64,000 nucleotides of DNA from Eubacteriales bacterium. GTDB taxonomy: Bacteria > Bacillota > Clostridia > Oscillospirales > CAG-272. Below are positions 7,224-35,536 of the stretch, piece by piece; within the stretch, counting starts at the first letter, position 1, and each line of letters starts with the position of its first letter. The stretch covers positions 11,716 through 75,715 of the forward strand of contig JAZREL010000062.1 of NCBI GenBank assembly GCA_045660785.1, written 5' to 3'. The notes beneath the pieces are model-generated. The model saw only the letters and a program-made list of their open reading frames with translations. It did no database searches and was not told where the DNA came from. A program made the translations under genes and the position numbers.

Positions 7224-7241
7224 TTTAAAAGGAGAGTAAAA

Positions 7242-8432
7242 ATGAAAATTCTCGTTGTAAATGCCGGAAGCTCATCACTTAAATATCAGCTTTTTGATAT
7301 GGAATCCGGCGCGGTTCTTGCAAAGGGCTTGTGTGAGAGAATTGGCATTGACGGAGTCATCACCCACAAGCGTCCAGGCAAAGAGGACTACAAGTCAGAA
7401 GCAAGTCTTGGTGACCACAAGGCAGCTATTGAGCTTGTGCTTAAGCTTCTTTGTGACAAAGAGCTCGGCGTTATATCAGGCGCTCACGAAATCGGTGCTG
7501 TCGGACACAGATTTGCCCACGGCGGCGAAAAAATCCGTCAGTCAAGCATCCTTGGCGAAAAGGAGCTTGAATATCTTGAAAGCATAGTTGAAATCAACCC
7601 GTTACACGGTCCGCCTGCGATAAGCGGATTCAAGGCGTGTAAGAGTGTAATGCCAAACATAAAGCACGTTGGCGTATTTGACACCTCTTATTATTCAACT
7701 ATGGAAGAAAAAGCGTACATATACCCTATTCCCTACGAGCTTTACCAAAAGCATAAGATTCGCCGTTACGGCTTCCACGGCACCTCACACAGATTTGTGT
7801 GCCAAAAGGCCGCTGAGCTTATAGGTAATAAGGATGCAAAAATAGTAACCTGCCACCTTGGCAACGGCTCGTCAATAACGGCAAGCGCACAAGGAAAAGC
7901 GGTTGACACATCAATGGGCTTCACCCCACAAGAGGGCGTGCCTATGGGAACAAGAAGCGGAACCATCGACCCAACGGTTGTTTCTTATATAATGAAAAAG
8001 GAAGGAATTTCACCCGAGGAGGTTGAAAAGCTTCTTAATTCAAAATCGGGACTTCTTGGCATTTCGGGCGTCTCAAGCGACTGCAGAGATATTACCGAGG
8101 CAAAGGAGCAAGGAAACAAGCGTGCGGAGCTTGCAATGGACGTTTTGGTTCATTATATTAAAAAGATTATCGGCTCATACGTTGCTGAAATGAACGGAAT
8201 TGATGCACTTGTGTTTACAGCGGGCATCGGTGAAAACGACAGATACGTAAGAGAACAGGTATGCAAAAATATGTCTTATCTCGGAATAGAGATTGACGAG
8301 GAGCTTAATATGACTTGCCCACGCGGCGAGGACGTTGAGCTTACAAAGGCAGGGGCTAAGGTAAGAACGTTCGTGCTTCCTACAAACGAGGAATATATGA
8401 TTGCTCTTGACACGTATGCCCTAACAAAATGA
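7242..8432 (+). CDS. ackA: acetate/propionate kinase
   Basis: MKILVVNAGSSSLKYQL, RRYGFHGTSH, CHLGNGSS, FTAGIGEN, PTNEE. Confidence 0.95.
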   Translation: MKILVVNAGSSSLKYQLFDMESGAVLAKGLCERIGIDGVITHKRPGKEDYKSEASLGDHKAAIELVLKLLCDKELGVISGAHEIGAVGHRFAHGGEKIRQSSILGEKELEYLESIVEINPLHGPPAISGFKACKSVMPNIKHVGVFDTSYYSTMEEKAYIYPIPYELYQKHKIRRYGFHGTSHRFVCQKAAELIGNKDAKIVTCHLGNGSSITASAQGKAVDTSMGFTPQEGVPMGTRSGTIDPTVVSYIMKKEGISPEEVEKLLNSKSGLLGISGVSSDCRDITEAKEQGNKRAELAMDVLVHYIKKIIGSYVAEMNGIDALVFTAGIGENDRYVREQVCKNMSYLGIEIDEELNMTCPRGEDVELTKAGAKVRTFVLPTNEEYMIALDTYALTK

Positions 8433-8475
8433 TTATTAAAAAAATTTATATACAAATCGAAAGGAAAAAAACAAA

Positions 8476-9225
8476 ATGAAATCAGCTTACGAAATTAAAA
8501 AGGAAATCTGTGAAGTTGGCCACGCGCTCTATCACCTCGGCTTCGTTGCCGCAAACGACGGTAATATCTCCGTTAAGGTTAGCGAAAATGAGTACTACTG
8601 CACACCAACAGGCGTATCAAAGGGTGCGCTTACCCCTGATATGATTATCAAGGTTGACAGAAACGGAAACAAGATTGAGGGCAAGCTCAATCCATCATCA
8701 GAAATCAAGATGCACATGCGCGTTTACCAAAAGCGTCCTGACGTTGGCGCGGTAGTTCACGCACATCCACCGATTGCAACTGCATTCACAATTGCAGGCA
8801 TCGACCTTGACCAATACATCTTGCCTGAGGCAGTTCTTACAATCGGCGAGGTTCCAACCTGCGCATACGGAACTCCTTCAACTATGGAAATTCCTGACTC
8901 ACTCGAGCCATACATCGAAAACCACGACGCTTTCCTTCTCCAAAACCACGGCGCTTTGACAGTTGGCTTCAGTCTCCAAAAGGCAATGTTCGTTATGGAA
9001 GAGGTTGAGTTCAACGCAAAGATTTGCAAGTACGCTATGGAGCTTGGTGCAGTTCACGAAATTCCTAACGATCAGTTAAAGAAGCTTATGGAGCTTCGTA
9101 AGAAGATGAACATCCCTGGCCGTCACCCCGGTATTGATTACGGTGAAGCAGAATGCAAGTGCGGCGCAAACGAGGAGCTTGTTGCTGAAATCACACGTAG
9201 AGTTATCGCGGCTCTCGGCAAATAA
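8476..9225 (+). CDS. fucA: class II aldolase (L-fuculose/L-rhamnulose-1-phosphate aldolase) with C-terminal encapsulation peptide
   Basis: DGNISV, PSSEIKMH, VVHAHP, LLQNHG; C-terminal amphipathic helix EELVAEITRRVIAAL. Confidence 0.85.
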   Translation: MKSAYEIKKEICEVGHALYHLGFVAANDGNISVKVSENEYYCTPTGVSKGALTPDMIIKVDRNGNKIEGKLNPSSEIKMHMRVYQKRPDVGAVVHAHPPIATAFTIAGIDLDQYILPEAVLTIGEVPTCAYGTPSTMEIPDSLEPYIENHDAFLLQNHGALTVGFSLQKAMFVMEEVEFNAKICKYAMELGAVHEIPNDQLKKLMELRKKMNIPGRHPGIDYGEAECKCGANEELVAEITRRVIAALGK

Positions 9226-9261
9226 TTTTCTCCTGATATAAAATAAAAAAGGAGATTTAAT

Positions 9262-10719
9262 ATGGCTATAAATTGGACAGACGCGCAAATTGAAGAAATC
9301 GTTGCATCTGTTATGAAGGGACTTAAGGGCGACTCCCCTGCTCCAAGGTGTAAATACGACGGCGCTTCTTATAACGGCAAAAAATATATCGGCGTTTACG
9401 ACGATATGAACGAAGCAATAGATGCTGCCGAGCTTGGTTATAAGGCAATTCGTGCAATGTCACTTGAGGAGAGGGAAAAGGTTATTTGGCAAGTTCGCGA
9501 CCTTTGCCGTAAGGAAGCTCCGACAATGGCATCACTTGGTGTAAGTGAGACCAAAATGGGCAGAGTTGACCATAAAACCGCCAAGCATATGCTCGTTGCC
9601 GACAAAACTCCCGGCACAAGCGATATTGCCGCGCAGGTGAAAACGGGTGACTACGGTCTTACGCTTACTGAAATGGCTCCCTTTGGAGTTGTTGGAAGCA
9701 TTACTCCAAGCACAAACCCGTCCGAAACCGTTATTTGTAACAGTATAGGAATGATAGCCGCGGGCAACGGTGTTGTATTTAACCCACACCCCAACGCTAT
9801 TGCAACCTCTAACTATGCAGTAGATCTTATCAACCGCGCAAGCGCATTAGCAGGCGGCCCTAAGGTTCTTGTTACCTCAGTTGCAAAGCCAACGCTTGAT
9901 ACCGCATCCGTTATGTACAAGGACCCAAGAATTAAGCTTCTTGTTTGTACAGGTGGCCCGGGTGTTGTTAAGAGCGTTTTGTCAAGCGGCAAAAAGGCGA
10001 TAGGCGCAGGTGCGGGCAACCCACCAGTTATCGTTGACGACACAGCTGACATTAAGAAGGCGGGCAAGGACATTATCGACGGATGCACCTTTGATAACAA
10101 TCTTCCCTGCATTGCAGAAAAGGAGGTATTCGCACTTGCTAATATCGCAGACGAGCTTATCGATGCAATGAAAGCAAACGGCGCGTATCTTATAACCACC
10201 GCTCAAGCAAATAAGCTTGCAAGCGTGGTTCTCGTTGAAAAAACAAACCCAAAAACAGGCATAAGCACAAAGGTTGTCAACCGTGATTGCGTTGGCAGAG
10301 ATGCAAAGGTTTTACTTGAAAAAATCGGCATTTACGTAGGTGACGACGTTCGTTGTATCATCTGTGAAACAGACTTTATGCACGATTTCGTTCAAGAGGA
10401 GCTTATGATGCCTATTCTTCCTATTGTAAGAGTTGATAATATTGACAAGGCAATCGAGCTTGCTGTAAAAGCTGAGCACGGTAACCGTCATACAGCGCAT
10501 ATGCACTCTAAAAATCTTGACAATTTAACAAGATTTGCAAGAGCCGTTGAAACAACTATTTTCGTAAAGAACGCCCCATCCTATGCAGGCATCGGCTTTG
10601 GCGGAGAGGGACACACAACCTTTACAATTGCAGGACCTACGGGCGAGGGCATCACAAGCGCAAAAAGCTTTACAAGACAACGCCGCTGCGTTCTCTCTGA
10701 AAGCTTCAGAATAATCTAA
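9262..10719 (+). CDS. pduP: CoA-acylating aldehyde dehydrogenase (PduP/EutE-like) with N-terminal encapsulation peptide
   Basis: ITPSTNPSET, TGGPGVV, AGAGNPP, FDNNLPCIAEKE, GPTGEG; N-terminal QIEEIVASVMKGL helix. Confidence 0.92.
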   Translation: MAINWTDAQIEEIVASVMKGLKGDSPAPRCKYDGASYNGKKYIGVYDDMNEAIDAAELGYKAIRAMSLEEREKVIWQVRDLCRKEAPTMASLGVSETKMGRVDHKTAKHMLVADKTPGTSDIAAQVKTGDYGLTLTEMAPFGVVGSITPSTNPSETVICNSIGMIAAGNGVVFNPHPNAIATSNYAVDLINRASALAGGPKVLVTSVAKPTLDTASVMYKDPRIKLLVCTGGPGVVKSVLSSGKKAIGAGAGNPPVIVDDTADIKKAGKDIIDGCTFDNNLPCIAEKEVFALANIADELIDAMKANGAYLITTAQANKLASVVLVEKTNPKTGISTKVVNRDCVGRDAKVLLEKIGIYVGDDVRCIICETDFMHDFVQEELMMPILPIVRVDNIDKAIELAVKAEHGNRHTAHMHSKNLDNLTRFARAVETTIFVKNAPSYAGIGFGGEGHTTFTIAGPTGEGITSAKSFTRQRRCVLSESFRII

Positions 10720-10733
10720 GAAGGGACAAAGAA

Positions 10734-11933
10734 ATGAACATTTCATCATCACAGGTAGAGAGCATAGTTCGCAAAATTCTTGGCGAGATGTCACCCGCAA
10801 GCGGTGTATCGGGCGCTAAGGTTCCAAAGACCGCTAAGGTTGCAATGCTCACCGCTCCTAAAAAAATCGAGGTTAAGGAATTTCCAATTCCAACCGTTGG
10901 TGACAACGATATTCTCGTAAAGGTTGAGGGATGCGGCGTTTGCGGAACTGACGTTCACGAATGGAAGGGCGATCCTTTCGGTATAATTCCTGTTACTCTC
11001 GGTCACGAGGGAACGGGTGAGATAGTTGCTCTCGGTAAAAACGTAAAGGCAGATACAGCAGGAAATCCTATAAAGGTTGGCGACAAAATCGTTACCTCAG
11101 TTATCAGCTGCGGCGAATGCTTCGTTTGCCGTAACAAGCCCGCAAACACTAACCTTTGCGACAAGCAGGGCGTGTTCGGACTTATTCCACACAGTGATGC
11201 AAATCCGTTAACAGGTTGGTTTGCTTCACATCTTCTTATCAGCGGAAAGGGCTCAACCTATTTCGTTGTAAACGACCTTGACCTTAAAGAAAGAATGCTC
11301 CTTGAGCTTGCTTGCGTTTGCGTGCATGCACTTAAAAGAGCAAATACCACGGGCTTAATTAACTTCAACTCAAAGGTTCTCGTTCAAGGACTTGGCCCTG
11401 TTGGACTTGTTATGATAAGCGTGCTTCGTGCAGCGGGTGTAAACCATATCGTAGCAATTGACGGAACACCTAAGCGCCTTGAAATGGCAAAGAAGCTCGG
11501 TGCTAAAACAGTTATCAGCTTCAAGGAAATTGCCTCACTTGAGGAAAGAGTTAACCTTGTTAAAAGCGTTTCAAACGGCGTAGGCGTTGACTTTGCATTC
11601 CAATGCACAGGCGTGCCTATGGCGGCAAAGGACATCTACGAATACATCCGTCGTGGCGGCGGAATGTGCGAAATGGGCTTCTTCGTAAACAACGGAGAAT
11701 ATACAGTAAACCCACACTTCGCTATGTGCAACAAGGAAATTAATATTGTCGGCTCTTGGGATTACAGTGCTGACGACTACCCAACAACAATGGCATTCCT
11801 TCGTCAGGCAAGAGAGATGAATATTCCTATTAAGGAGCTTATCACTCACACCTTCCCACTCGATCAGCTTAACGAGGCGATGGAGGTTAACGTATCTCAA
11901 GCGGGCATCAAGATTTGCTACGTTGCTGAATAA
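10734..11933 (+). CDS. zinc-dependent (MDR) alcohol dehydrogenase with encapsulation peptide
   Basis: GCGVCGTD, LGHEGTG, CGECFVC...C structural Zn site, GLGPVG; N-terminal QVESIVRKILGEM helix. Confidence 0.9.
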   Translation: MNISSSQVESIVRKILGEMSPASGVSGAKVPKTAKVAMLTAPKKIEVKEFPIPTVGDNDILVKVEGCGVCGTDVHEWKGDPFGIIPVTLGHEGTGEIVALGKNVKADTAGNPIKVGDKIVTSVISCGECFVCRNKPANTNLCDKQGVFGLIPHSDANPLTGWFASHLLISGKGSTYFVVNDLDLKERMLLELACVCVHALKRANTTGLINFNSKVLVQGLGPVGLVMISVLRAAGVNHIVAIDGTPKRLEMAKKLGAKTVISFKEIASLEERVNLVKSVSNGVGVDFAFQCTGVPMAAKDIYEYIRRGGGMCEMGFFVNNGEYTVNPHFAMCNKEINIVGSWDYSADDYPTTMAFLRQAREMNIPIKELITHTFPLDQLNEAMEVNVSQAGIKICYVAE

Positions 11934-11944
11934 GGAGTTAGCTT

Positions 11945-12262
11945 ATGGCTCTTGGAATGATTGAGGTTTATGGCTTTGCTACTGCAATAGTGGTGGCTGA
12001 CGCTATGGCTAAGGCGGCGGACGTAAAGGTCGTTGCCATTGATAAAAACAAGCCCGCGGGCGGTGACTCGGCAAAGGTGCCCCTCGTTATGGCTATAAAA
12101 ATTGAGGGCTCTGCTGCTGCAGTAGAGGCGGCTATATTAGTCGGCAAGGCAGAGGCAGACAAAAGAGAGCTTTATATCACCCATAAGGTGATAGCAAGAC
12201 AGAGCGAGGATATTGAGTGGTTTGCACACCTCTCTGCCCTCGGTCACGATAAACTTAGATAA
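11945..12262 (+). CDS. BMC hexamer shell protein (divergent BMC-H)
   Basis: [26 protein letters not shown] motif. Confidence 0.9.
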
Positions 12263-12288
12263 TAATAATTAAAAGGAGAATAAAAACA

Positions 12289-12564
12289 ATGATGGAAGCA
12301 CTCGGAATGGTAGAGACAAGAGGTCTCGTTGCTGCAATTGAAGCAGCAGACGCAATGGTAAAGGCAGCTAACGTAGTTCTTATCGGCAGCGAAAAGATCG
12401 GTAGCGGACTTGTAAGCGTTATGGTTCGCGGTGACGTTGGTGCAGTTAAGGCAGCAGTTGAAGCAGGAAGCGCAGCTGCTAACTCACTTGGCGAGGTTAT
12501 TGCAACACACGTAATCCCAAGACCGCACGCAGACGTTGAAAAGCTTCTTCCTATTATAAAATAA
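12289..12564 (+). CDS. BMC-H shell protein (PduA/PduJ/EutM-like)
   Basis: [27 protein letters not shown]...GDVGAVKAA...VIPRPH. Confidence 0.95.
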
Positions 12565-12581
12565 TTTGAGGATTTTATAGT

Positions 12582-12854
12582 ATGAAGGCAATAGCGTTAC
12601 TTGAAGTGCAGGCAATGGTAGCCGCAATAGCAGGACTTGACGCTATGGTAAAGGCAGCAGACGTAAAGCTCATTCACGTGGAAAAGCGCCTCGGCGGCAG
12701 ACTTGTAACAGTTGTCGTTGAAGGCGAGGTTTCCGCGGTGAAGGCGGCGCTCGAGGCAGGTGCCATCGAAGCTGCTAAAGTAGGAAACGTTAAGTGTTGC
12801 GAGGTTATCGCTCGCCCACACCCCGATGTTATGAGATTTTTAACAACGGGCTAA
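12582..12854 (+). CDS. BMC-H shell protein
   Basis: DAMVKAADV...GEVSAVKAA...VIARPH. Confidence 0.92.
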   Translation: MKAIALLEVQAMVAAIAGLDAMVKAADVKLIHVEKRLGGRLVTVVVEGEVSAVKAALEAGAIEAAKVGNVKCCEVIARPHPDVMRFLTTG

Positions 12855-12953
12855 TATGCCATATTTGGCAAGCAATTAAGATTTTTAAAGCTTCGGCTTT
12901 GAAATAAACAAAACAAAAAATAAAAAATAACAATAAAACAGGAGGATTTTCAA

Positions 12954-13226
12954 ATGGAAGCACTCGGAATGGTTGAAACAAGAGGTCTTGTAGCTGCAAT
13001 CGAGGCGGCAGACGCTATGGTAAAGGCGGCTAACGTAGTTCTTATCGGTAGCGAAAAGATCGGTAGCGGACTTGTAAGCGTTATGGTTCGTGGCGACGTT
13101 GGCGCAGTTAAGGCAGCAGTTGAGGCAGGAAGCGCAGCAGCTAACTCACTTGGTGAGGTTATTGCAACACACGTAATTCCAAGACCACACGCAGACGTTG
13201 AGAAGCTTCTTCCATCTATTAAGTAA
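12954..13226 (+). CDS. BMC-H shell protein (PduA/PduJ/EutM-like), near-identical paralogue of 12289..12564
   Basis: Same protein sequence except the near-terminal PSIK vs PIIK (and an extra initial Met). Confidence 0.95.
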
Positions 13227-13370
13227 TAATTAATAGAAGGAAGGCAATCTCAGTATCCAAAGGGCTTTGTGCCCTTTGGGTACTGCAAAAGAGCTTAAAG
13301 AAAAACGGTTGAGCTTTTTTGCAGTACGAGGCAATATGCAAAAGTAAGCATTATACGGAAGGAAATAAAA

Positions 13371-14027
13371 ATGGATATTTCTAAAGAACAAATAGCCGAA
13401 ATGGTAAGACGCACGCTTCTTGAAATGAGCGGCGAAGCAAAAATTGAAAATGCAAAGGGCGAAATTCCGATTGGCGTTTCAAACAGACATATACATCTGT
13501 CAAAGGGCGACCTTGAAACTCTTTTCGGCGCGGGCTACGAGCTTACCCCTATAAAGGAGCTTTCTCAGCCGGGGCAATATGCCTGCCGCGAGGTGCTCAC
13601 TATTATCGGCCCATCAATGCGCCCAATAGAAAACGTAAGGGTGCTTGGCCCTGTAAGAAAAGCATCTCAGGTTGAAATCTCGGCAACGGATTCATACGTT
13701 TTGAAGGTTAAGCCACCGGTAAGAGAATCGGGCAATATAAAGGACTCGGCTCCTATAAGAATTGTCGGCCCGAAGGGTGTTGTTGAGCTTAACGAGGGAT
13801 GCATAATTGCAAACAGACATATTCATATGTCACCCACTGAAGCCGAGGTGTTTGGTATTAAGGACGGTGACTACGTAGATATTGATGTAAACGGCAAGCG
13901 CAGAACGAGATGGTTTGACGTTCAGGTAAGAGTTCACAAGGACTTCCGCTTGGAAATGCACGTTGACACAGACGATGCAAACGCGGCGGGCATAGGCAAC
14001 GGGTTTACCGTAAATATAGTAAAGTAA
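13371..14027 (+). CDS. pduL: phosphate propanoyltransferase PduL with encapsulation peptide
   Basis: GVSNRHIHLS, LSQPGQYA, PVRESG, RHIHM, EMHVDTDDANA; N-terminal EQIAEMVRRTLLEM. Confidence 0.95.
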   Translation: MDISKEQIAEMVRRTLLEMSGEAKIENAKGEIPIGVSNRHIHLSKGDLETLFGAGYELTPIKELSQPGQYACREVLTIIGPSMRPIENVRVLGPVRKASQVEISATDSYVLKVKPPVRESGNIKDSAPIRIVGPKGVVELNEGCIIANRHIHMSPTEAEVFGIKDGDYVDIDVNGKRRTRWFDVQVRVHKDFRLEMHVDTDDANAAGIGNGFTVNIVK

Positions 14028-14043
14028 AAGCGAGGTAATAAAC

Positions 14044-14292
14044 ATGTTAAAGGGAATTATCAGAGGAAACATCGTTTCCACAAGAAAGCAAGAATCTTTA
14101 GTAGGCAGCAAGTTTATGGAGGTTCAGCTTATTAAAAACGGACAGTTCACAGACGAATATATAATAGCTATCGATTCCGTTGGCGCGGGTATCGGTGAGA
14201 CCGTTCTTATTACCACGGGAAGCTCAGCTCGCTTGGCATTACATAACACAAGCAGTCCTGCTGACGCGGTTATTGTCGGTATAGTTGACTAA
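14044..14292 (+). CDS. eutN: BMC pentamer (vertex) protein, EutN/PduN/CcmL family
   Basis: AIDSVGAGIGETVLI..GSSAR...DAVIVGIVD. Confidence 0.93.
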   Translation: MLKGIIRGNIVSTRKQESLVGSKFMEVQLIKNGQFTDEYIIAIDSVGAGIGETVLITTGSSARLALHNTSSPADAVIVGIVD

Positions 14293-14323
14293 GAAATAAA
14301 TGAATCCGCGCGTGACCTGAAAA

Positions 14324-14348
14324 GCGGGAGGGAGAACCCCTCCCCTAC
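14324..14348 (-). repeat. GTAG-type REP-like palindrome
   Basis: Minus strand reads GTAG-GGGAGGG-GTTCT-CCCTCCC-GC, in the eutN-pduS gap. Confidence 0.5.
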
Positions 14349-14401
14349 GAAGGTAATTTTTGGCGCGAATTCTTGGAAAATCATTTTGAAAGAGTGAAAA
14401 G

Positions 14402-15721
14402 ATGCAGGAACTTAAGAATTTAATGCGCGATTTTGGCGTCGTTGGCGCCGGAGGAGCGGGGTTCCCCTCTTACGCTAAGCTTGCGGAGGGGGCAGACCTC
14501 CTCCTTATAAACGGCTCTGAATGTGAGCCGCTTTTATACACCGACTACGTTATTTTGAAAAATGAGCTTACTATGGTTCTTTTCGGAATTTCGACGGTGC
14601 TTTTACATACGGGCATCCCAAAAGCTGTCTTAGCTGTAAAGGAGCACACGGCAAAAAAGCTCGGCTTTGAAAACGGCGAAAAGTTATCGGACAAAATTTT
14701 TGTCAAGGTTTTGCCAAACGTGTATCCGACGGGTGATGAAATAGGACTTATCTACGAAGCAACGAAACGTCTTGTAAAGCCGGGAAAATTGCCGATTACC
14801 GAGGGCGTTATAGTATATAACGTCGAAACGATGTATAATCTTGGCAGAGCGAAAAAGTTTTCTGAGCCCGTAAACAAAAAATATATCACAGTAGGCGGAG
14901 ATATCAAGAATCCAACCGTAATAAGAGTGCCGATTGGCGCAAAAATAGATGATATTTTCAAAATGCTTGATATAACGGTTGAGGATGGCTACACCGTGCT
15001 CGACGGCGGCCCCTCAATGGGTAAAATAGTAAATCCAAGAACGCACGCGATAACCAAAACAACAAAGGGAATATTAATTCTTCCCGATGACTCGCCTGCG
15101 GTTCTTTCTAAAAAAATAAATGAAAAAATGGCGATAGCAAGGGCTGAAACCGCTTGCTGTCAATGCACAAGATGCACCGATATGTGCCCAAGAAACTTGC
15201 TTGGCTACCCCTTGGAGCCACATAAAATGGTAAGAACTGCAATGGGTGTTGCCGAAATAATGCCCGAGATGGTAATAAGCGCGTCGCTTTGCTGCGGATG
15301 CGGCATTTGCGAGTCCCTTGCTTGCAGTCAAGGCATTTCTCCAAGGGCGGTAATTGCAAACTATAAGGAGCTTCTTGCAAAAAACAAGCTTCGCTTTAAT
15401 GGCTCCGACGAATATGAAGTAAGAAACGAAAGAGATTATAGAATGATTTCATCCGAAAAATGGATGAGCACGCTCGGCGTGACTAAATTTGATAAGGTTG
15501 CTGATTTCGGCGGCGAAATGAATGATTTTTCAAGAGTTGAAATTTCACTTTCAAGCCATATAGGCGCACCAAGCATTCCTTTGGTAAGCGATGGCGATTT
15601 CGTAAGCTCAAAGGATTTGATTGCAAAGGCACAGAACGGTCTTTCCTTGCCACAGCACGCTTCTCTTTCAGGCATGGTAACCGTAGGAAACGGTAAAATA
15701 ATAATTGATAAGGTAAGATGA
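14402..15721 (+). CDS. pduS: PduS-like Fe-S flavoprotein (RnfC-related, SLBB domain)
   Basis: GVVGAGGAGFPSY, NGSECEPLL, GGPSMG, CCQCTRCTDMCP and CCGCGICE clusters, HIGAP. Confidence 0.9.
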   Translation: MQELKNLMRDFGVVGAGGAGFPSYAKLAEGADLLLINGSECEPLLYTDYVILKNELTMVLFGISTVLLHTGIPKAVLAVKEHTAKKLGFENGEKLSDKIFVKVLPNVYPTGDEIGLIYEATKRLVKPGKLPITEGVIVYNVETMYNLGRAKKFSEPVNKKYITVGGDIKNPTVIRVPIGAKIDDIFKMLDITVEDGYTVLDGGPSMGKIVNPRTHAITKTTKGILILPDDSPAVLSKKINEKMAIARAETACCQCTRCTDMCPRNLLGYPLEPHKMVRTAMGVAEIMPEMVISASLCCGCGICESLACSQGISPRAVIANYKELLAKNKLRFNGSDEYEVRNERDYRMISSEKWMSTLGVTKFDKVADFGGEMNDFSRVEISLSSHIGAPSIPLVSDGDFVSSKDLIAKAQNGLSLPQHASLSGMVTVGNGKIIIDKVR

Positions 15722-15722
15722 A

Positions 15723-16268
15723 ATGTATAAGGCAATAGGCGTTATTGAATTAAAAAGCATACCAAAGGGCGTTGAGGCGGCAGATGCTGCACTTAAAAGC
15801 GCGGGAGTTGAAATGGTTTCGGCTCACCCCTCCTGCCCCGGTAAATATGAGATTGTGCTTACGGGCTCAATATCAAACGTGACGGCTGCAGTTTCTCACG
15901 TTACGTCAAAATTTGACGGCTACGTTATAGATTCAAGCGTTATGGGTAGAATTGAGGAGCAGGTTATAAAAGCACTCTTCGGCACTCAGACAGGAGAGCG
16001 CGAGGGCTCACTCGGACTTATTGAAACCTTCTCCGCGGCAAGCGCGATTAAAGCGGCAGATATAGCGGTAAAGACTGCAAGAGTAGAAATATACGACCTT
16101 CGCGTTTCAAGAGGTATGGGCGGCAAGGGTGTAGTAATGCTCACGGGTGAAATCGGCGACGTTACTGCGGCAGTTGAGGCAGGTGCAAATTATGCAAAGA
16201 GCGTTTCCACTCTTTCATCATATACAGTAATTGCGGCTCCGCATAAGGAGCTTTGGAAGCAAATGTAA
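15723..16268 (+). CDS. pduT: BMC trimer shell protein PduT-like
   Basis: Two BMC domains; SCPGKY pore cysteine motif; GMGGKG. Confidence 0.9.
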   Translation: MYKAIGVIELKSIPKGVEAADAALKSAGVEMVSAHPSCPGKYEIVLTGSISNVTAAVSHVTSKFDGYVIDSSVMGRIEEQVIKALFGTQTGEREGSLGLIETFSAASAIKAADIAVKTARVEIYDLRVSRGMGGKGVVMLTGEIGDVTAAVEAGANYAKSVSTLSSYTVIAAPHKELWKQM

Positions 16269-16289: not shown

Positions 16290-18827
16290 GTGACTGTGGA
16301 AAACATTAAATTCATAATTGAAAAAAGCTCAAGAATACAAAAATTAGTAGATAATCTTTATGAAAAAATGCCCGAGATTGAAGCATCAAGAGGAAAGCTT
16401 GTAACAGAAAGCTACAAAATGACTGAAAATCTCCCGATAATCAAGCGCAGAAGCGCCGCATTTGCTCATATTTTAAGAAATATTCCGATAGTTATACGCG
16501 ACGGCGAGCTTGTTGTAGGAAGTGCAACGGTTGCTCCGCGCTCATGTCAGGTTTTCCCCGAATATTCATACGAGTGGCTACTTTCGGAGCTTGACACCGT
16601 ATCAACAAGAGCTGCTGACCCGTTTTACATAAGTGAAAAAACAAAATCGGAGCTTCGCGAAATTTATCCTTGGTGGCAAGGAAAAACCACGAGTGACCTT
16701 GCAAAAGCAAATATGTCACCCGAGGCGTACGAGGCGTTTACCGAGCATTCTGTGTTCACCCCCGGAAACTATTTTTATAACGGTATAGGACACGTTTGCG
16801 TAGATTACGGCAAGGTGCTTAAAATCGGTTACAGAGGAATTATAAAGGAAGCAGAGGATGCACTTTGCAAGCTTGACGTGTCGGATGGCGATTACGTTTC
16901 AAGAAGCAATTTCCTTTACGCGGTTATCGAAAGCTGTCAAGCGGTAATTGAATATGCGCGCAGATATAGCGCACTTGCACGCGATATGGCAAGCAAGGAA
17001 GCATGCCCTCAAAGAAAGCGCGAGCTTGAAATGATTGCGCGTAACTGTGCAAGAGTTCCCGAATCCCCCGCGACAAGCTTTTACGAGGCGTGCCAGTCAT
17101 TTTGGTTTATTCAGCTTCTTTTGCAGGTTGAATCAAGCGGACACTCAATCTCCCCGGGCAGATTTGACCAATATATGTATCCTTATTTTAAGAAGGATAT
17201 CGACGCGGGAAAAATCACCTACGAGCAGGCGCAAGAGCTTCTTGACTGCATTTGGGTAAAATTCAATGATATAAATAAGGTAAGAGATGCGGCGTCAGCA
17301 GACGGCTTTGCGGGCTACGGAATGTTCCAAAACCTCATCGTTGGCGGACAAAACGAGCACGGAATGGACTCAACAAACGACCTTTCGTATATGTGTATCG
17401 AAGCTGCTATGCACGTTCCGCTTCCACAGCCGTCAATTTCAATCAGAGTTTGGAACGGCTCACCCGAACCGTTACTTATCAAGGCAGCATCACTCACCCG
17501 TCTTGGCACTGGCTTGCCTGCATATTATAATGACGAAATAATTATTCCATCCATTATGGCAAGGGGACTTACCCTTGAGGATGCAAGAGATTATTGCATT
17601 ATCGGTTGTGTAGAGCCGCAAAAGGCAGGAAAAACCGACGGATGGCACGATGCGGCATTCTTCAATATGTGCCGCCCAATGGAGCTTGTATTCTCAAACG
17701 GCTACGACAAGGGCAAAAAAATAGGCCCCGACACTGGCGACGTTGCCGAAATGAAGACCTTTGAGGAGTTCTACGAAGCATACAAGACACAGCAAAGCTA
17801 TATGATAAAGCTGCTTGTAAATGCAAACAACGCAATAGATATGGCACACGCGGTAAGATGCCCACTTCCCTTCCAATCCTGTATGGTTGAGGATTGCATC
17901 GGCAGAGGAAAATCACTTCAAGAGGGCGGAGCTATATATAACTTCACAGGCCCGCAGGGCTTTGGTATAGCAAATAATACCGACGGCTTGGCGGCTATTA
18001 AAAAGCTCATATTCGAGGAAAAGAGATTTACCCTTTCAGAGCTTAAGGAAGCGTTAAGCGCAAACTTCGGCTACGGTGTGCAAGGGGCGCACGCGGAAAA
18101 GCTTGTTACTGAAATTGCAACCGAGCTTGTAAGACAGGGCGTTAGCGTAAACGAGGATGCAATTCGTATAATTTACGATGAGGTGACAAACCAAACCGCA
18201 CTCTCGACAGCGCAAAAATCAAGATATAAGGAAATTAAGCGACTTATCGAGGAGGAAGCTCCTAAGTACGGAAACGATATTTACGACGTTGATATGCTTG
18301 CCAGAGACGTAGCCAACAGCTACACAAAGGAAGTTGAAAAATATAAAAATCCAAGAGGCGGTATTTTCCAAGCGGGTCTTTACCCCGTATCGGCTAACGT
18401 GCCGCTTGGCGCATCAACGGGCGCAACTCCCGACGGACGACTTGCATATACTCCCTTGGCAGACGGCATAGGCCCCGCCTCGGGCAGAGATATAAAGGGC
18501 CCAACTGCAACGGCAAACTCCGTTGCTAAGCTTGAGCAGGGCGTTGCATCAAACGGAACGCTTCTTAACCAAAAGTTCCATCCGTCAGCGCTTGAGGGAA
18601 TGAGCGGCCTTTCCAAGTTCGTTGCCCTTATTCGCTCATACTTTGACCAAAAGGGTATGCACGTTCAGTTTAACGTTGTAACTAAGGAAACCTTGATTGA
18701 CGCGCAAAACAATCCCGAAAAATATAAGACCCTTGTTGTAAGAGTTGCGGGATATAGCGCACTGTTCACAACGCTTTCGCGCTCACTTCAGGACGATATT
18801 ATAAACAGAACCGAACAGGGTTGGTAA
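16290..18827 (+). CDS. glycyl radical enzyme, B12-independent 1,2-propanediol dehydratase
   Basis: RVAGYS glycyl loop, IIGCVEP Cys loop, NGIGH, SSGHSIS, WHDAAF; GYGMFQN and LYPVSAN have the Phe/Val of propanediol-type rather than the Tyr/Ser of glycerol-type enzymes; BMC plus aldolase context. Confidence 0.88.
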   Translation: MTVENIKFIIEKSSRIQKLVDNLYEKMPEIEASRGKLVTESYKMTENLPIIKRRSAAFAHILRNIPIVIRDGELVVGSATVAPRSCQVFPEYSYEWLLSELDTVSTRAADPFYISEKTKSELREIYPWWQGKTTSDLAKANMSPEAYEAFTEHSVFTPGNYFYNGIGHVCVDYGKVLKIGYRGIIKEAEDALCKLDVSDGDYVSRSNFLYAVIESCQAVIEYARRYSALARDMASKEACPQRKRELEMIARNCARVPESPATSFYEACQSFWFIQLLLQVESSGHSISPGRFDQYMYPYFKKDIDAGKITYEQAQELLDCIWVKFNDINKVRDAASADGFAGYGMFQNLIVGGQNEHGMDSTNDLSYMCIEAAMHVPLPQPSISIRVWNGSPEPLLIKAASLTRLGTGLPAYYNDEIIIPSIMARGLTLEDARDYCIIGCVEPQKAGKTDGWHDAAFFNMCRPMELVFSNGYDKGKKIGPDTGDVAEMKTFEEFYEAYKTQQSYMIKLLVNANNAIDMAHAVRCPLPFQSCMVEDCIGRGKSLQEGGAIYNFTGPQGFGIANNTDGLAAIKKLIFEEKRFTLSELKEALSANFGYGVQGAHAEKLVTEIATELVRQGVSVNEDAIRIIYDEVTNQTALSTAQKSRYKEIKRLIEEEAPKYGNDIYDVDMLARDVANSYTKEVEKYKNPRGGIFQAGLYPVSANVPLGASTGATPDGRLAYTPLADGIGPASGRDIKGPTATANSVAKLEQGVASNGTLLNQKFHPSALEGMSGLSKFVALIRSYFDQKGMHVQFNVVTKETLIDAQNNPEKYKTLVVRVAGYSALFTTLSRSLQDDIINRTEQGW

Positions 18828-18929
18828 GACTGAGAGGGAAACACCTTAAGGCACAAACATAAACCACAAAAAACAATGAACTTTGTTTTTCTGTCACCGC
18901 TTGAAAAATAAGGTTGAAAAACTACGTTT

Positions 18930-19122
18930 TTCTTCTTAATTGTGGTTTATTATCGCCGATTTTTACTCTACCGTACTAAGTACGCCGACGTGAAAAAAAT
19001 CGACGATTTCTGCTCTTAATCTGTCCCCCTCGGCTACGTTCTACAGAAATATAGTGCTGCGCACATTATAACGCTTGCGCGAATTATAGCTCGCAAGCTC
19101 GCATTATAACGCTTGCGCGAAT
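18930..19122. repeat. intergenic palindromic/repeat-rich insert
   Basis: CGTACTAAGTACG palindrome inside an imperfect inverted repeat (ATCGCCGATTTTT / AAAAATCGACGAT), then a 21-bp direct repeat CATTATAACGCTTGCGCGAAT in two copies. Confidence 0.5.
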
Positions 19123-19148
19123 AAAAAATGAGAAGGAGGAAAACCACG

Positions 19149-19928
19149 GTGTCAGATATAAAAGGCAGAATATTTAATATTCAACGCTTTTCAATTCACG
19201 ACGGGCCGGGAATAAGAACAATTGTCTTTTTCAAGGGCTGCTATATGAGATGTGCGTGGTGCTGTAATCCCGAATCTCAAAACAAAGAAATTGAAACGAT
19301 TATAGAAAAAGGCAGAGAAAAAACGGTTGGCTACGACGTTAGGGTATCTGACGTTATGCCCGAAATTTTAGCCGACCTTCCCTACTATAAAAGAAGCGAG
19401 GGTGGCGTTACCCTTTCAGGTGGCGAGGTGCTTTGCCAAGCGGATTTTGCAAGGGAGCTATTAATTGCCTGCAAGGAGGCAGGGCTTCACACAGCCGTGG
19501 AGTCAGCCGCGTCCGCACCGATTTCTGAAATAGAAAAAATCCTTCCTTACGTTGATTTATACCTTATGGACATAAAGCATATGGACAGCGCAAAGCACAA
19601 GGAATATACGGCGGTTGGCAACGAGCGCATACTTGAAAATGCAAGAAAAATAGCCGAAAGCGGAGTTGAGCTTATAATAAGAACGCCCGTCATCCCCGGC
19701 TTTAACGACACACCCGAGGAAATAAAAGCAATTTCGCATTTTGCAAAAACCTTGCCGGGAGTAAAGGAGCATCACCTGCTTCCCTATCACCGCCTCGGCT
19801 CGGACAAATACCAAGGGCTTGGCAGAAAATATTCCCTGCCCGAAATTTTGCCGCCGACCAAGGAAAAAATGGAATATCTTTTGTCTTATGCAGAAACATC
19901 GGGGCTTAGATGTAAAATTGGAGGATAA
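19149..19928 (+). CDS. glycyl-radical enzyme activating protein (radical SAM)
   Basis: HDGPGIRTIVFFKGC, CxxxCxxC (CYMRCAWC), GGVTLSGGE, LLPYH; GTG start at 19149 after AAGGAGG (ORF track 19128). Confidence 0.93.
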   Translation: MSDIKGRIFNIQRFSIHDGPGIRTIVFFKGCYMRCAWCCNPESQNKEIETIIEKGREKTVGYDVRVSDVMPEILADLPYYKRSEGGVTLSGGEVLCQADFARELLIACKEAGLHTAVESAASAPISEIEKILPYVDLYLMDIKHMDSAKHKEYTAVGNERILENARKIAESGVELIIRTPVIPGFNDTPEEIKAISHFAKTLPGVKEHHLLPYHRLGSDKYQGLGRKYSLPEILPPTKEKMEYLLSYAETSGLRCKIGG

Positions 19929-19930
19929 CA

Positions 19931-20290
19931 ATGGAACTACGTGAAAATATGAGAATAGTGCAGGAGTTAGTACCGGGTAAGCAAATAACTCTTTGCCATA
20001 TAATCGCAAATCCCGACGACGTGCTTTACACCAAGCTCGGACTTGACCCAAAAACTGACTACACAAGAAGCGCAATAGGCGTGCTTACCGTTTCCCCTGC
20101 TGAAAGTGCGGTTATCACTGCCGATATTGCTATAAAATCATCGGGCGCGGACATCGGCTTCGTTGATAGATTTACAGGAACGTTAATTATCACGGGAAGC
20201 GTATCAAGCGTGGAATCCGCATTCGGTGCAATAAGAGAATATTTCACCTCAAAGCTTTCCTACGTTTGCTGTGAAATAACAAGAACGTAA
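19931..20290 (+). CDS. pduU: circularly permuted BMC shell protein PduU/EutS
   Basis: RIVQELVPGKQITLCHIIANP...GFVDRFTGTL...CEITRT. Confidence 0.92.
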   Translation: MELRENMRIVQELVPGKQITLCHIIANPDDVLYTKLGLDPKTDYTRSAIGVLTVSPAESAVITADIAIKSSGADIGFVDRFTGTLIITGSVSSVESAFGAIREYFTSKLSYVCCEITRT

Positions 20291-20739
20291 TGAAAAAAAT
20301 TATTTTAATAGGCAGAGTTGCGGCGGGCAAAACCACCCTAACTCAAGCGTTAAGCGGCGAAAAAATCCACTACTACAAAACGCAGTATATAAACTATCTT
20401 GATTCGATAATAGACACCCCCGGTGAATATACGGAGCTTAGGCAAACAAGCGGCGCACTCGCGCTTTATTCGTATGAAGCGGACGTTGTTGGACTTGTGC
20501 TTTCGGCAAACGAGCCGTACTCTATTTTCTCACCCTGCATTACAAGCTTGGTTAACCGCGAGGTTGTTGGCATTATCACTGGCATAGACAAGCCCGATGC
20601 CAATCCCGAAAGAGTTGAAAGATGGCTACGCTTGGCGGGCTGTAAGAAAATATTTCCCGTCAGCGCTTATACAGGCGAGGGGCTTGACGCGCTTTTAGAA
20701 TTTCTCGCCGAGGATGAAAAGGATTTCAAAGAAAATTAA
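20290..20739 (+). CDS. pduV: PduV/EutP Ras-like GTPase
   Basis: IILIGRVAAGKTTL, YYKTQ, IDTPGEY. Confidence 0.92.
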   Translation: MKKIILIGRVAAGKTTLTQALSGEKIHYYKTQYINYLDSIIDTPGEYTELRQTSGALALYSYEADVVGLVLSANEPYSIFSPCITSLVNREVVGIITGIDKPDANPERVERWLRLAGCKKIFPVSAYTGEGLDALLEFLAEDEKDFKEN

Positions 20740-20793: not shown

Positions 20794-21585
20794 ATGAGCA
20801 GAACCCAAATAATAGCGTTTGCAAATAACAAGGGCGGAAGCGGAAAAACCACAAGCTGCTCCAATATAGGATGCGCACTTGCGCTTATGGGCAAAAGGGT
20901 GCTTTTGATTGACGGAGATATGCAGCTTAATTTGACGCTTTCCTTCTTCGATGAGGAAAGAGCGCTTGAATATGCAAGCAACGGAAAAAATATATATACG
21001 GCAATAAAGGAAGAAAAGGACCTTTCCGATTTCGTGGTAGCCACGGAATACGAGGGGCTTGATATAATACCGTCAACTTCACTTATGAGCGCGGTTGAGT
21101 TTGACCTCTTTTCCAAATGGCAAAGAGAATTTATACTTAAAAAATGCTTGGAGCCGATAAGAGCTCGCGGCTATTACGATTACATACTTATAGATTCACC
21201 ACCGACGCTTGGCGGATGGGTAATGAACATTATGTGCGCCTCTGACTTCGTTGTTATTCCCGTGGAGGCAAGCCCTTGGGGTCTTTTCGGCCTTGCAAAT
21301 ATGTTTGACTTCATAGGTAAGGTGAGCGAAATATCCCCTCGCCTTGAGGTTATGGGAATTATGGTGACCAAGGCGGACGAGAGAAAAACCTACTTTAAGG
21401 AAACCTTGAAAACCTTAAGAGAAAGCGAAAACGTAAGAGTTTTTGACGGCTACGTAAGGGTTGACAGTGCAGTTGAGTGGTCGCAGGACAACAGTAAGCC
21501 CGTTGTTGCTTACAAAAAATACTCAAGAAGCGCACTTGAATATACTAAGCTCGCAAAGGAGATTTTAAAGTATGCCAATAGGTAA
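20794..21585 (+). CDS. ParA/MinD family ATPase within the BMC operon (McdA-like candidate)
   Basis: Deviant Walker A NNKGGSGKTT, LLIDGDMQ, ILIDSPP; ATG 20794 after AGGAGG (ORF track 20755). Confidence 0.9.
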   Translation: MSRTQIIAFANNKGGSGKTTSCSNIGCALALMGKRVLLIDGDMQLNLTLSFFDEERALEYASNGKNIYTAIKEEKDLSDFVVATEYEGLDIIPSTSLMSAVEFDLFSKWQREFILKKCLEPIRARGYYDYILIDSPPTLGGWVMNIMCASDFVVIPVEASPWGLFGLANMFDFIGKVSEISPRLEVMGIMVTKADERKTYFKETLKTLRESENVRVFDGYVRVDSAVEWSQDNSKPVVAYKKYSRSALEYTKLAKEILKYANR

Positions 21586-21976
21586 AAATGCGATAAAAAG
21601 AGTAACGAATAACGGCTACTCGAGTGTAAAAACAGAAGCACCCGATATGGAAAACAGTGTTGTAGCCGAGGAAAAAACCGCGACAGAGCCAAAAAAGCCG
21701 ACAGCGAAAAAAGCAGCTCCTAAAGCAGCTGCAAAGACAGCCGAGCCAAAGAAAACAGCCGAGCCAAAGAAGGCAGCTGAGCCAAAGAAAGCGGCTGAAC
21801 CAAAGAAAACCGCCCCAAAATCATCCACCTCACCCAAAAAGAGCATGGAAAAGGAGCCCGACCTTGCACCTGTAAAAACACTTGAAAAGGTTGTTGCCAA
21901 AACCGATGAGGCGAAAAAAAGAGAGGGCGATGGCTACGTAAATCTTGGCGGGGATTTACCGTATTACTTGTTATAA
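21572..21976 (+). CDS. small disordered Lys/Ala/Pro-rich protein overlapping the ParA stop (McdB-like candidate)
   Basis: 14-nt overlap with parA; basic N-terminus MPIGKNAIKRV, AEPKK repeats, aromatic C-terminus GGDLPYYLL. Confidence 0.75.
   Translation: MPIGKNAIKRVTNNGYSSVKTEAPDMENSVVAEEKTATEPKKPTAKKAAPKAAAKTAEPKKTAEPKKAAEPKKAAEPKKTAPKSSTSPKKSMEKEPDLAPVKTLEKVVAKTDEAKKREGDGYVNLGGDLPYYLL
21737..21808 (+). repeat. 18-bp coding tandem repeat x4 (T/AAEPKK)
   Basis: RCRGCYGARCCAAAGAAR units in tandem. Confidence 0.85.
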
Positions 21977-21978: not shown

Positions 21979-22011
21979 AAAAGAGCAGAATTCCCTGCTC
22001 TTTTTTATTTT
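21979..22011 (+). terminator. Rho-independent terminator ending the BMC operon
   Basis: AAAAGAGCAG-aattcc-CTGCTCTTTT plus T tract. Confidence 0.8.
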
Positions 22012-22131
22012 TGTAATGCAAATATAAAATACGTAAGCCACGATTAATCAAACTCACTTGAATTAGTGGAAAAATTGTTGTATACTTGAATTATAAAGAA
22101 AAGCGGTCGAGCTTGACAGAAATGAGGTTTT

Positions 22132-33612: not shown

Positions 33613-34509
33613 TCAACCTTCGATAATGCCTTTGCCGCAAAGCTTGATGAGGATGTCCTCAAGGTCGTCGTTTCCGTAGAAATCAATCTCCACTGTTGAA
33701 ACCTTGCCCTTTTGCTTAATCTTTACGCGCTTGCCTGTTATATGCATTGCTCTTTTTTCGAGGTCCTTTATGTAATCAACCTCGATTTCCTCGCCCTCGT
33801 TTTCCTCTGTGGGGACAAGTCCCTTTTCGTATTCCTTGTTTAGCTTTTTGACAAGTGCTTCTGTGTCACGTACGGAAAGTGAACGTACCAAAATCTGCTC
33901 CGCAGTATCTACGATACTGTCCTTGTTTTTAAGACCCAAAAGTGCACGCGCGTGGCCTGCTGAAATATCACCTGTTTTGAGCATCTCAAGTACGTCATCA
34001 GGAAGGTCGAGCAAACGCATTGAGTTTGCAACCGCGCTTCTTGATTTTCCAACCTTTTCGCTAACCTCCTCTTGGGTTAAGCCGTATTGGTCGATAAGTG
34101 CCTTATAAGCTGATGCTTCTTCGTATGGATTGAGGTCTTGACGTTGAATATTCTCGATAATCGCTATTTCTGCCGCCTCAAGCTCGTCCGCTTGCATAAT
34201 AATTGCGGGAATTTCTGAAAGTCCTGCAAGCTTTGATGCGCGCCATCTGCGCTCACCTGCGATAATTTGATAATAGCCCTGTGCATCCTCGCTTTCGCGA
34301 ACGATGATTGGTTGAAGCAAGCCGTGGCGTTTGATTGAATCGGAAAGCTCAAAAAGTGCTTCCTCGTCAAAATGCTTTCTCGGTTGGTCTGCCTTTGGCT
34401 CTATTTGTGATAAACGAAGCGTTTGAATTCCGTCGTCCTTTGATGATGAAACGTCAATGTAGTTGTCTGCGAATATGGAGTCGAGTCCTCTTCCAAGTCC
34501 TTTTTTCAT
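33613..34509 (-). CDS. parB: chromosome partitioning protein ParB/Spo0J
   Basis: KKGLGRGLDS N-terminus, IIAGERRWRA, ENIQRQDLNPYEEA, GHARALL. Confidence 0.96.
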   Translation of the reverse strand: MKKGLGRGLDSIFADNYIDVSSSKDDGIQTLRLSQIEPKADQPRKHFDEEALFELSDSIKRHGLLQPIIVRESEDAQGYYQIIAGERRWRASKLAGLSEIPAIIMQADELEAAEIAIIENIQRQDLNPYEEASAYKALIDQYGLTQEEVSEKVGKSRSAVANSMRLLDLPDDVLEMLKTGDISAGHARALLGLKNKDSIVDTAEQILVRSLSVRDTEALVKKLNKEYEKGLVPTEENEGEEIEVDYIKDLEKRAMHITGKRVKIKQKGKVSTVEIDFYGNDDLEDILIKLCGKGIIEG

Positions 34510-34525
34510 TTGCTTTTCTCCTTTT

Positions 34526-35317: not shown

Positions 35318-35536
35318 CCTTTCGTTTGTGATTTTCTAATAAAAGTATAACATCATTTTCGCACAAAATCAATAGAATTTATTGAAAATTTTTAGAAAAG
35401 TAAATAATACCAATGGTGTACTAACCAATTTACTAACCAATTGGAAATATCGGAGAGCACATCAAAACGTTGCAAATTTTTCCTCAAATATAGTTCTCTG
35501 ATATGAAATGGACTACCTGCAGGGCTTGAAACGCAG

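Follow-up and report, generated by a model that had tools for sequence, protein, structure and literature searches.

The closest described systems to the gene pair reported here are the McdA and McdB proteins of carboxysomes. The N-terminal 20 residues of McdB bind McdA and detach it from DNA (PMC12139897), a C-terminal aromatic residue of McdB drives its association with the carboxysome (PMC11321042), and alpha-McdB has been described as biased in composition towards residues of the A/P/K/S/T type (PMC8359340). Putative McdA/McdB-like genes have also been reported at PDU and GRM loci, where the small protein carries a Tyr or Phe in its last 4-5 residues (PMC8359340, MacCready 2021; PMC11321042, Basalla 2024; such genes are also described in PMC8262871), and the occurrence of ParA at bacterial microcompartment (BMC) loci was noted by Axen et al. 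2014 (PMC4207490). The positioning and inheritance of catabolic microcompartments are called an open question in the reviews PMC8262871 and PMC13052382 and, in the portions of text available for each, the latter review (2025) and a paper of 2026 (PMC12866334) still treat metabolosome McdAB-like pairs as untested. A search of the literature, mostly open-access, found no experimental test of a ParA/McdB-like pair for a metabolosome and no report of McdB-like proteins that bear a ParB_N domain.

The second body of relevant work concerns DNA segregation. ParB proteins contact ParA through the motif (L/F/I)G[KR]G(L/F/I) (PMC12704722), the mechanism of which is treated in PMC12462528, and PadC of Myxococcus xanthus (PDB 6RYK) resembles ParB, binds CTP and, as an adaptor, brings ParA to bactofilin (PMC12704722, PMC9178275). 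According to a survey of the ParB-CTPase fold (PMC12704722), the choice of nucleotide is not predictable from sequence; the word 'microcompartment' is absent from the available main text of that survey.

Here we describe a ParA-type ATPase and a small partner, the products of the two last genes in a catabolic microcompartment cluster from the Clostridia, and follow the pair through related genomes. The pair is a real and well-conserved feature. New here are its strict co-occurrence with microcompartments and the existence of ParB_N-bearing forms inside GRM5 operons; the idea of positioning has already been published as a prediction.

Organization of the locus

The window, by which we mean the whole stretch of 64,000 nucleotides analysed, comes from a Eubacteriales bacterium and holds a complete glycyl-radical microcompartment cluster at 6345-21976 on the + strand (Table 1). 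The first part of the long upstream block encodes an RpiR regulator, acetate kinase, class II aldolase, AldDH and Zn-ADH, and the second part four BMC-H proteins, PduL, BMC-P, PduS and a BMC-T of PduT type. The glycyl-radical enzyme has the diol dehydratase 5I2A as its best PDB match, at 1181 bits over the whole length. Between the activase and ParA lie a BMC-domain gene (19931-20290), which we take to be PduU-like from its position, and PduV/EutP (20290-20739). The GRM5 type is defined by a glycyl-radical propanediol dehydratase with its activase, a class II aldolase, a PF00107/PF08240 reductase, PduS and PduT (PMC6325248), all of which are found in this cluster. Rhamnose and fucose isomerases are encoded elsewhere in the same genome (82% complete), in which the sole BMC locus found is this GRM5 cluster, with no carboxysome cargo.

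Table 1. Features of the cluster, of the ParA/partner pair and of the chromosomal soj-parB region in the window
Feature	Position	Strand	Basis
Rest of GRM5 cluster	6345..16268	+	Pfam/NCBIfam matches
Glycyl-radical 1,2-propanediol dehydratase and activase (GRM5 signature)	16290..19928	+	PDB match, Pfam
BMC-domain gene and PduV/EutP GTPase, directly 5' of ParA	19931..20739	+	PF00936, PF10662
ParA/Soj-type ATPase, 263 aa, candidate McdA-like positioning ATPase (ATG 20794, stop 21585)	20794..21585	+	Pfam AAA_31, alignment, model
134-aa partner ORF, candidate McdB-like adaptor	21572..21976	+	Conserved ends, low-complexity AEPKK linker
N-terminal motif MPIGKNAIKR at the start of the partner, predicted ParA-binding peptide	21572..21601	+	Conservation, likeness to ParB motif
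18-nt tandem repeat, AEPKK[TA] units, variable linker	21734..21823	+	Repeat search
C-terminal motif GGDLPYYLL at the end of the partner, predicted cargo-binding tip	21947..21976	+	Conservation
Intrinsic terminator closing the cluster	21979..22014	+	Hairpin fold and T tail
Separate chromosomal parB, soj and three parS (comparison only, outside the pair)	33613..36030	-	Pfam, parS pattern

The pair forms the last two genes of this propanediol-dehydratase (fucose/rhamnose) cluster, and the order after PduV is ParA, the overlapping 134-aa ORF and a strong terminator. A preliminary description of this DNA had reported that a ParA lies 3' of pduU-pduV, that it overlaps the 134-aa ORF by 14 nt and that a terminator follows, and this arrangement is borne out in each respect, the terminator hairpin (21979-22004, with a T tail) folding at -13 kcal/mol with a z of -5.2. 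From the gene spacing we infer that the pair is co-transcribed with the BMC cluster. An Rfam scan of 5000-24000 gave no match.

A separate segregation locus lies 12-14 kb from the pair, where Soj (34526-35317) adjoins a true ParB with both ParB_N and HTH_ParB domains. With a palindrome pattern that we take to be that of parS, perfect sites were found in the window at 35537, 35708 and 36015, all of them beside soj-parB and none near the pair, in agreement with the preliminary description.

The ParA ATPase

The ATPase gene has a GGAGG ribosome site just 5' of its start, and its product matches Pfam AAA_31 with an E-value of 6e-52. It has the deviant Walker A motif with signature lysine (KGGxGK[ST], here KGGSGKTT), the Walker A' and the Walker B motifs of the ParA/MinD family, as tabulated in PMC9178275. 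It is distinct from the nearby Soj, as had been claimed, the two sharing 35% identity, and descent as a local duplicate of soj was rejected because identity to distant members of its own subfamily is at least 55%. Residues K13, K18, D40, D42, D134, R197, K198 and R245 are invariant in 45 of 45 aligned subfamily members. A structure model (pLDDT 93) has its best fold matches among Soj/ParA proteins, with a TM of 0.91 to ParA 8RAY, and the McdA of Cyanothece ranks lower among the ParA matches. The basic residues K193, R197, K198, K202, R222, K241, K242 and R245 are kept in 95-100% of 105 rows; R197 aligns with the DNA-binding arginine of Soj, and on this comparison the basic patch would be the DNA-binding face of the protein.

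The subfamily is discrete, with full-length members at least 51% identical and the next proteins at about 40%. It is absent from 72,556 plasmid and 50,697 phage records, where the best among the matches listed reaches 38%. One 357-aa match (P0002), considered as a ParA-partner fusion, was rejected as such and is an internal duplication of ParA. In broader samples the subfamily was found in 0 of 400 other genomes across the phylum at 1e-58, in 4 of 398 genomes of the class (G102 and G352 being unscored) and in 0 of 140 genomes order-wide at subfamily level, though 17 of these 140 encode BMC-P; the pair is thus no general feature of microcompartments.

The partner protein

The partner is encoded directly 3' of a parA-type gene and has a charged N-terminus, as McdB proteins do. 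It has no Pfam or NCBIfam match, and a ParB_N profile derived from proteins related to it finds neither a match nor any trace of that domain in it. Searched against the PDB, the partner profile retrieved no McdB or other credible match, and the ESM Atlas matches, of low recognition score, are unnamed hypothetical clusters only. Nevertheless the ORF is not a chance one, because an overlapping partner is present in 79 of the best 80 of 243 related loci (the 80th is cut) and because, among 9,775 stop-to-stop frames of at least 60 aa in the genome, it is the sole ORF with the C-terminal motif.

Across 119 partners, which range from 69 to 207 aa, the ends are conserved and the middle is variable, the typical form being an N-terminal [IV]GKxSIxR peptide and a C-terminal PxYLL. 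The basic N-terminus KNAIKR that had been singled out is part of a conserved element, the conserved form of which is rather [LIV]GxxS/A[ILM]xR: the pattern [LIV]G..[SA][ILM].[RK] occurs in all 119 partners, [LIV]G[KR] in 115 and [LIV]G[KR]G in 14, and the strict ParB motif (L/F/I)G[KR]G(L/F/I) in none. Similarly, the C-terminal tip described as aromatic is conserved, but its invariant residue is a Pro at -5 (119/119). Position -3 is Tyr in 92, His in 17, Phe in 7 and Trp in 3, such that the aromatic residue, present in 102 of 119, is replaced by His in the other 17; an acidic residue lies near this position in 104 of 119. The window protein is strongly hydrophilic and basic (59% A/P/K/S/T, GRAVY -1.0), and its low complexity, biased composition, tandem repeat and variable linker make it likely to be disordered.

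Co-occurrence with microcompartments

Since the synteny of the closest loci is inherited, the informative part of any association with microcompartments is a link that survives separation of the genes, and wider families were therefore tested. The BMC vertex protein (BMC-P, PF03319) is encoded in 75 of 75 other genomes that carry the ParA subfamily, which fall in four families of Clostridia (here f1, f30, f67 and f69). In the window's own family, f1, it is found in 9 of 9 ParA genomes versus 16 of 75 overall, and in f30, sampled as 251 genomes with one per genus, in 30 of 30 versus 78 of 251 (Fisher p 6e-18, co-occurrence p-values being overstated because kin genomes are non-independent); these two families are the source of the background rates. 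In f67 BMC-P is present in 7 of 7 ParA genomes, always on other contigs than ParA, and in f69, where 29 of 116 genomes carry ParA, in 29 of 29.

The two genes are frequently far apart. In f30 ParA lies within 31 kb of BMC-P in 11 of 30 genomes and on a different contig in 17, and two further pairs share a contig with it at distances of 89 and 881 kb; in eight unlinked f30 genomes no BMC gene was found in the ~18-30 kb around ParA. The preliminary description had put forward a positioning pair for a catabolic microcompartment and had named pairs mostly unlinked to BMC loci as one of the findings that would refute it. The pairs are indeed often physically unlinked, yet every one of the 75 genomes encodes the vertex protein, and the proposal, although already in print, is strengthened to that extent.

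The type of microcompartment matters in f30. ParA is found in 29 of the 47 f30 genomes that encode a GRM5-type dehydratase together with BMC-P, and in 1 of the 31 BMC genomes without this dehydratase, namely G519 (G025 and G503, with partial dehydratase matches of 52-53%, were not counted as GRM5-type, and G379 was left out of the count). As 18 of the 47 are without ParA, it is dispensable for GRM5 genomes; and because 29 of the 30 f30 cases share one BMC type, the co-occurrence could reflect the fucose/rhamnose pathway and not the shell.

Gene neighbourhoods and partner-less loci

In the closest loci (the best 80 of 243), where ParA identity is 69-93%, PduV lies directly 5' in 79, and the remaining locus has 104 bases upstream. 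Overall the pair occupies at least three placements: after PduV, after a BMC-T and a DeoR-like gene, and divergent from a eutABC operon. The last of these is the locus of G519, which has a second, aldolase-type BMC cluster ~22 kb on from the pair. Five unlinked pairs lie upstream of orthologous Fe-ADH genes, the closest relative of which in the window's genome is 33-36% identical at best, that is, not a close one.

An adjacent partner is present at 64 of the 71 ParA loci examined and missing at 7 (the f69 loci of G1270, G1286, G1298 and G1299 were not cut out for this count). No partner was found elsewhere in the seven partner-less genomes by a DNA pattern with a positive control, nor in the five of them searched, control-free, by profile. 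Two of the partner-less ParAs precede an AraC-type gene, a sugar kinase and a rhamnose isomerase. We considered whether the adaptor of such ParAs is fused to a shell protein, given that the last BMC-H has a K/A/T-rich N-terminal extension in 7 of 7 partner-less genomes. In-frame BMC-H extensions of at least 23 residues also occur in 6 of 10 partner genomes and 7 of 10 ParA-less genomes, and on a scoring matrix for the partner N-terminus the BMC-H extensions reach at most 8 bits versus 18-25 for true partners; the idea was rejected as an established result and kept as a weak lead.

ParB_N-bearing relatives and the origin of the partner

That the partner lacks a ParB or HTH motif, as the preliminary description stated, is correct for the window protein but not for its family. 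Three families contribute partners in which a ParB_N domain sits between the same two end motifs, 26 of 64 in all (2 in f30, 6 in one f67 genus and 18 in five f69 genera, a taxonomically clumped sample); 13 of these matches are over the Pfam cut-off, 9 are below it and 4 appear only with a profile made from relatives. A protein search returned 10 clusters of the ParB_N form, 9 of them with both end motifs. The extended tail IHExKF...LPxYLL is common to partners with and without ParB_N. GxxR is present in each of the 11 aligned ParB_N rows, the glutamate of the canonical GERR is not kept, and a scan for HTH families detected none in the partners, including the ParB_N forms. The model of one ParB_N partner matches PadC, Noc and ParB, with PadC as the best fold match. 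In five f69 loci read fully, the ParB_N forms close a GRM5 operon of a different gene order, namely BMC-T, then a DeoR-like gene, present in all four loci read at that position, then ParA and the partner.

Descent of the partner from a ParB DNA-segregation protein is likely, because it has a peptide like the ParA-binding one of ParB, because many of its relatives bear ParB_N and because a conserved tail replaces the HTH; the lack of the strict ParB motif in all 119 partners counts against it. On quick, unrooted trees of ParA there are four changes of the ParB_N state and the members of one well-supported sister pair disagree, but a single clade of all ParB_N-linked ParAs is not rejected (AU p 0.23 and 0.12); repeated loss of an ancestral ParB_N is our preferred reading. 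Taken further, and held with slightly more doubt than conviction, the family may represent a Clostridia-specific organelle positioner in transition from a ParAB pair, in which an ancestral adaptor would have kept the ParA-binding peptide and a nucleotide-binding ParB_N, the HTH would have been swapped for a predicted shell-binding PxYLL tail, and ParB_N would have been lost in several lineages including that of the window, giving McdB-like disordered linkers. If this is true, the ParB_N forms would act as organelle adaptors switched or dimerised by NTP, and the rise of McdB-type adaptors would be readable from the series.

Proposed function and alternative explanations

We consider it probable that the pair is an McdAB-like system that spaces and partitions fucose/rhamnose/propanediol microcompartments over the nucleoid, with an adaptor that is likely descended from ParB. 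A role in spacing organelles is likely because the ParA relatives are found only in genomes that encode microcompartments. Building on the observed gene order, motifs, fold and co-occurrence, and on analogy with the McdAB of carboxysomes, the binding steps and the cargo are predicted as follows. ATP-bound ParA dimers would coat the nucleoid DNA via the conserved basic C-terminal patch, and the partner would dock on the shell by its C-terminal PxYLL tip. Its N-terminal IGKxxIxR peptide would stimulate ATP hydrolysis and free ParA locally, and the organelle would then follow the ParA gradient upward as a Brownian ratchet, which would prevent polar clumping and let both daughters receive organelles. 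The partner stands outside the carboxysome McdB family, given that it has no invariant Trp and its genome no carboxysome, but it most likely works in the manner of that family.

In Salmonella, loss of parA or minD leaves the Pdu compartments dispersed, and McdAB does not move them (PMC12866334); this result counts against the pair as a microcompartment positioner, as do the 18 of 47 GRM5-type f30 genomes that lack ParA, the 7 of 71 ParA loci with no adjacent partner and the His variants of the tip. The pair might instead serve the microcompartment without nucleoid-based spacing, through assembly, size control, anti-aggregation or a PadC/bactofilin-like tethering to a fixed site. The same co-occurrence data fit such a role, the ParB_N partners are like PadC, which brings ParA to a scaffold and is not itself moved by it (PMC12704722), and PduV, another proposed positioning NTPase (PMC8262871), is the gene next to ParA. 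We nonetheless regard it as unlikely, as the basic C-terminal patch of the ParA is near-invariant, its catalytic motifs are complete and the partner shows the two-ended anatomy of the McdBs that have been tested.

Two further explanations detach the pair from the shell. It is improbable, more so than the foregoing, that it positions or regulates some other component co-inherited with fucose/rhamnose catabolism, such as a transporter, an enzyme cluster or the Fe-alcohol dehydrogenase near some unlinked pairs, with an indirect link to the shell. The GRM5-type dehydratase in 29 of 30 f30 cases, the partner-less ParAs before rhamnose isomerase genes and the five pairs upstream of Fe-ADH genes would suit such a role; the pair of G519 argues the other way, standing beside an ethanolamine BMC operon in a genome with no such dehydratase (though with the aldolase-type cluster further on), as do the pairs that end the BMC operon itself in f1, f69 and the best 80 of 243 loci and the distant Fe-ADH relative of the window's genome. 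Least credible, and very improbable in our view, is that the GRM5 cluster once travelled on a mobile element whose DNA-partition cassette survives in the pair, either as a relic or still at work. A patchy distribution (9 of 75 genomes in its own family, none in the order-wide sample) and ParB_N domains in relatives would be expected of a mobile cassette, but none of the partners scanned has an HTH, neither parS nor a centromere-like repeat lies near the pair, plasmid and phage records hold no member of the subfamily, and conservation of the pair is strong, its retention at a distance from the operon being confined to genomes with a BMC.

The family offers a sharply defined two-gene candidate for the positioning of catabolic microcompartments, McdAB having been tested only for carboxysomes. 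Residues G4, K5, R10, P130 and Y132 of the partner and K13 and R197 of ParA offer themselves for mutation, and GRM5 loci that naturally have or lack the pair allow comparison. Should the ParB_N forms be ancestral, they would mark a route from a DNA-segregation system to one that moves a protein organelle, and PxYLL is a potential portable tag for engineering compartment spacing in Gram-positive anaerobes.

Comparison with known systems

The pair shares with Soj/Spo0J (ParABS) the fold of its ParA and an N-terminal partner peptide similar to LG[KR]GL; unlike that system, it has no HTH and no nearby parS, and a soj-parB-parS locus of the genome's own lies 12 kb off. With PadC the ParB_N relatives share a predicted ParA-binding peptide and an HTH-less ParB-CTPase fold in which GxxR is kept, and like it they would link ParA to a protein structure. 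The window partner differs from PadC in being without ParB_N, and its predicted target is a microcompartment and not a cytoskeletal scaffold.

As in the alpha-McdAB system of Halothiobacillus neapolitanus (PMC8359340, PMC12139897 and PMC11321042, in the parts available), a ParA with the signature lysine is followed downstream by a small partner that is hydrophilic and A/P/K/S/T-rich, begins with a basic peptide and ends in a conserved tip. The predicted cargo here is, by contrast, a catabolic GRM5 compartment in anaerobic Clostridia, and the tip differs from that of carboxysome McdB in being PxYLL, with Trp at -3 in 3 of 119 partners and so not invariant; the window protein ends in YYLL. The window ParA scores higher against Soj/ParA (110 bits) than against the solved McdA of Cyanothece (54 bits), the one McdA compared, which suggests that it was recruited separately from McdA.

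The closest likeness is to the published PDU/GRM pairs (PMC8359340, section 2.9 and Fig. 8f; PMC11321042, Fig. 4), in which a ParA and a small partner lie in or beside a metabolosome operon. The window partner agrees with the description of these putative non-carboxysome McdB-like proteins, being the product of a BMC operon gene with a Tyr within its last four residues, where the description gives Tyr or Phe in the last 4-5, and an acidic residue nearby. The comparison is with the text descriptions of those pairs, which fit, and the two may be the same family. ParB_N forms, a genome-wide test of co-occurrence and His variants of the tip are unmentioned in the available text, and it is Soj/ParB-type ancestry and the ParB_N-bearing forms that set the present family apart as a variant of the published pairs.

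Chromosomal setting and neighbouring genes

The soj-parB-parS set (33613-36030 of the window) lies about 12 kb from the end of the GRM5 microcompartment cluster (6345-21976), which is therefore probably near the replication origin. A second ParA at most 10 kb downstream is also found in three close loci (L009, L035 and L051). Within the cluster, the gap between dehydratase and activase contains two copies of a short direct repeat, CATTATAACGCTTGCGCGAAT, and an internal promoter or terminator here, if present, would bear on co-transcription of the ParA pair and the shell genes. The lipoprotein-like ORF carries a PSDTDTDENK repeat, a duplicated acidic, tyrosine-rich segment and, at its C-terminal end, a zinc-protease-like HEFGH motif; a Pfam search with it gave no match.

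Coordinates of features in the window and in loci from other genomes
Feature	Source	Position
300-base gap, dehydratase/activase	window	18828-19127
Lipoprotein-like ORF, 979 aa	window	22132-25071
BMC cluster	L125 (G519:C13, about 78.7-87 kb)	8724-16974
Fe-alcohol dehydrogenase near unlinked pair	L139	8679-9821
Fe-alcohol dehydrogenase near unlinked pair	L141	10077-11219
Fe-alcohol dehydrogenase near unlinked pair	L142	11722-12864
Fe-alcohol dehydrogenase near unlinked pair	L143	10916-12058
Fe-alcohol dehydrogenase near unlinked pair	L088	5395-6609
BMC-H with [ST][ILVA]x(1-2)RV extension	L127	7344-7862
BMC-H with [ST][ILVA]x(1-2)RV extension	L128	5585-6118
BMC-H with [ST][ILVA]x(1-2)RV extension	L131	4643-5086
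BMC-H with [ST][ILVA]x(1-2)RV extension	L132	5193-5612
BMC-H with [ST][ILVA]x(1-2)RV extension	L135	12059-12499

ParA without a partner

In five of the seven genomes with a partner-less ParA, the last BMC-H has an N-terminal extension containing a motif picked post hoc, on data already inspected (TIQRV, TLQRV, TAERV, TIARV or SVAKRV), which occurs in 0 of 13 extensions from other genomes. Given that choice, and since one clade supplies four of the five genomes, the motif is only a lead towards a possible shell-fused ParA activator. The two partial ParA matches of another genome, G379, both at contig ends (C38:7542-8243 and C25:3-596), are probably a single gene broken by assembly.

Unlinked pairs and a second BMC cluster

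Shortly downstream of five pairs located apart from their own BMC operon are orthologous Fe-alcohol dehydrogenase genes (70-84% identical), and such a satellite locus is possibly the source of the propanol-forming enzyme. G519, whose pair is divergent from a eutABC operon, has a further BMC cluster with shell genes for BMC-T, BMC-H and three BMC-P; a sugar ABC transporter is encoded ahead of it, as is a DeoR protein. The cluster also encodes PduL, PduS, a class II aldolase, an IF-2B-family protein, which we take to be methylthioribose-phosphate isomerase-like, and a RuBisCO large-chain-like protein; this is a RuBisCO-like enzyme inside an apparent catabolic compartment.
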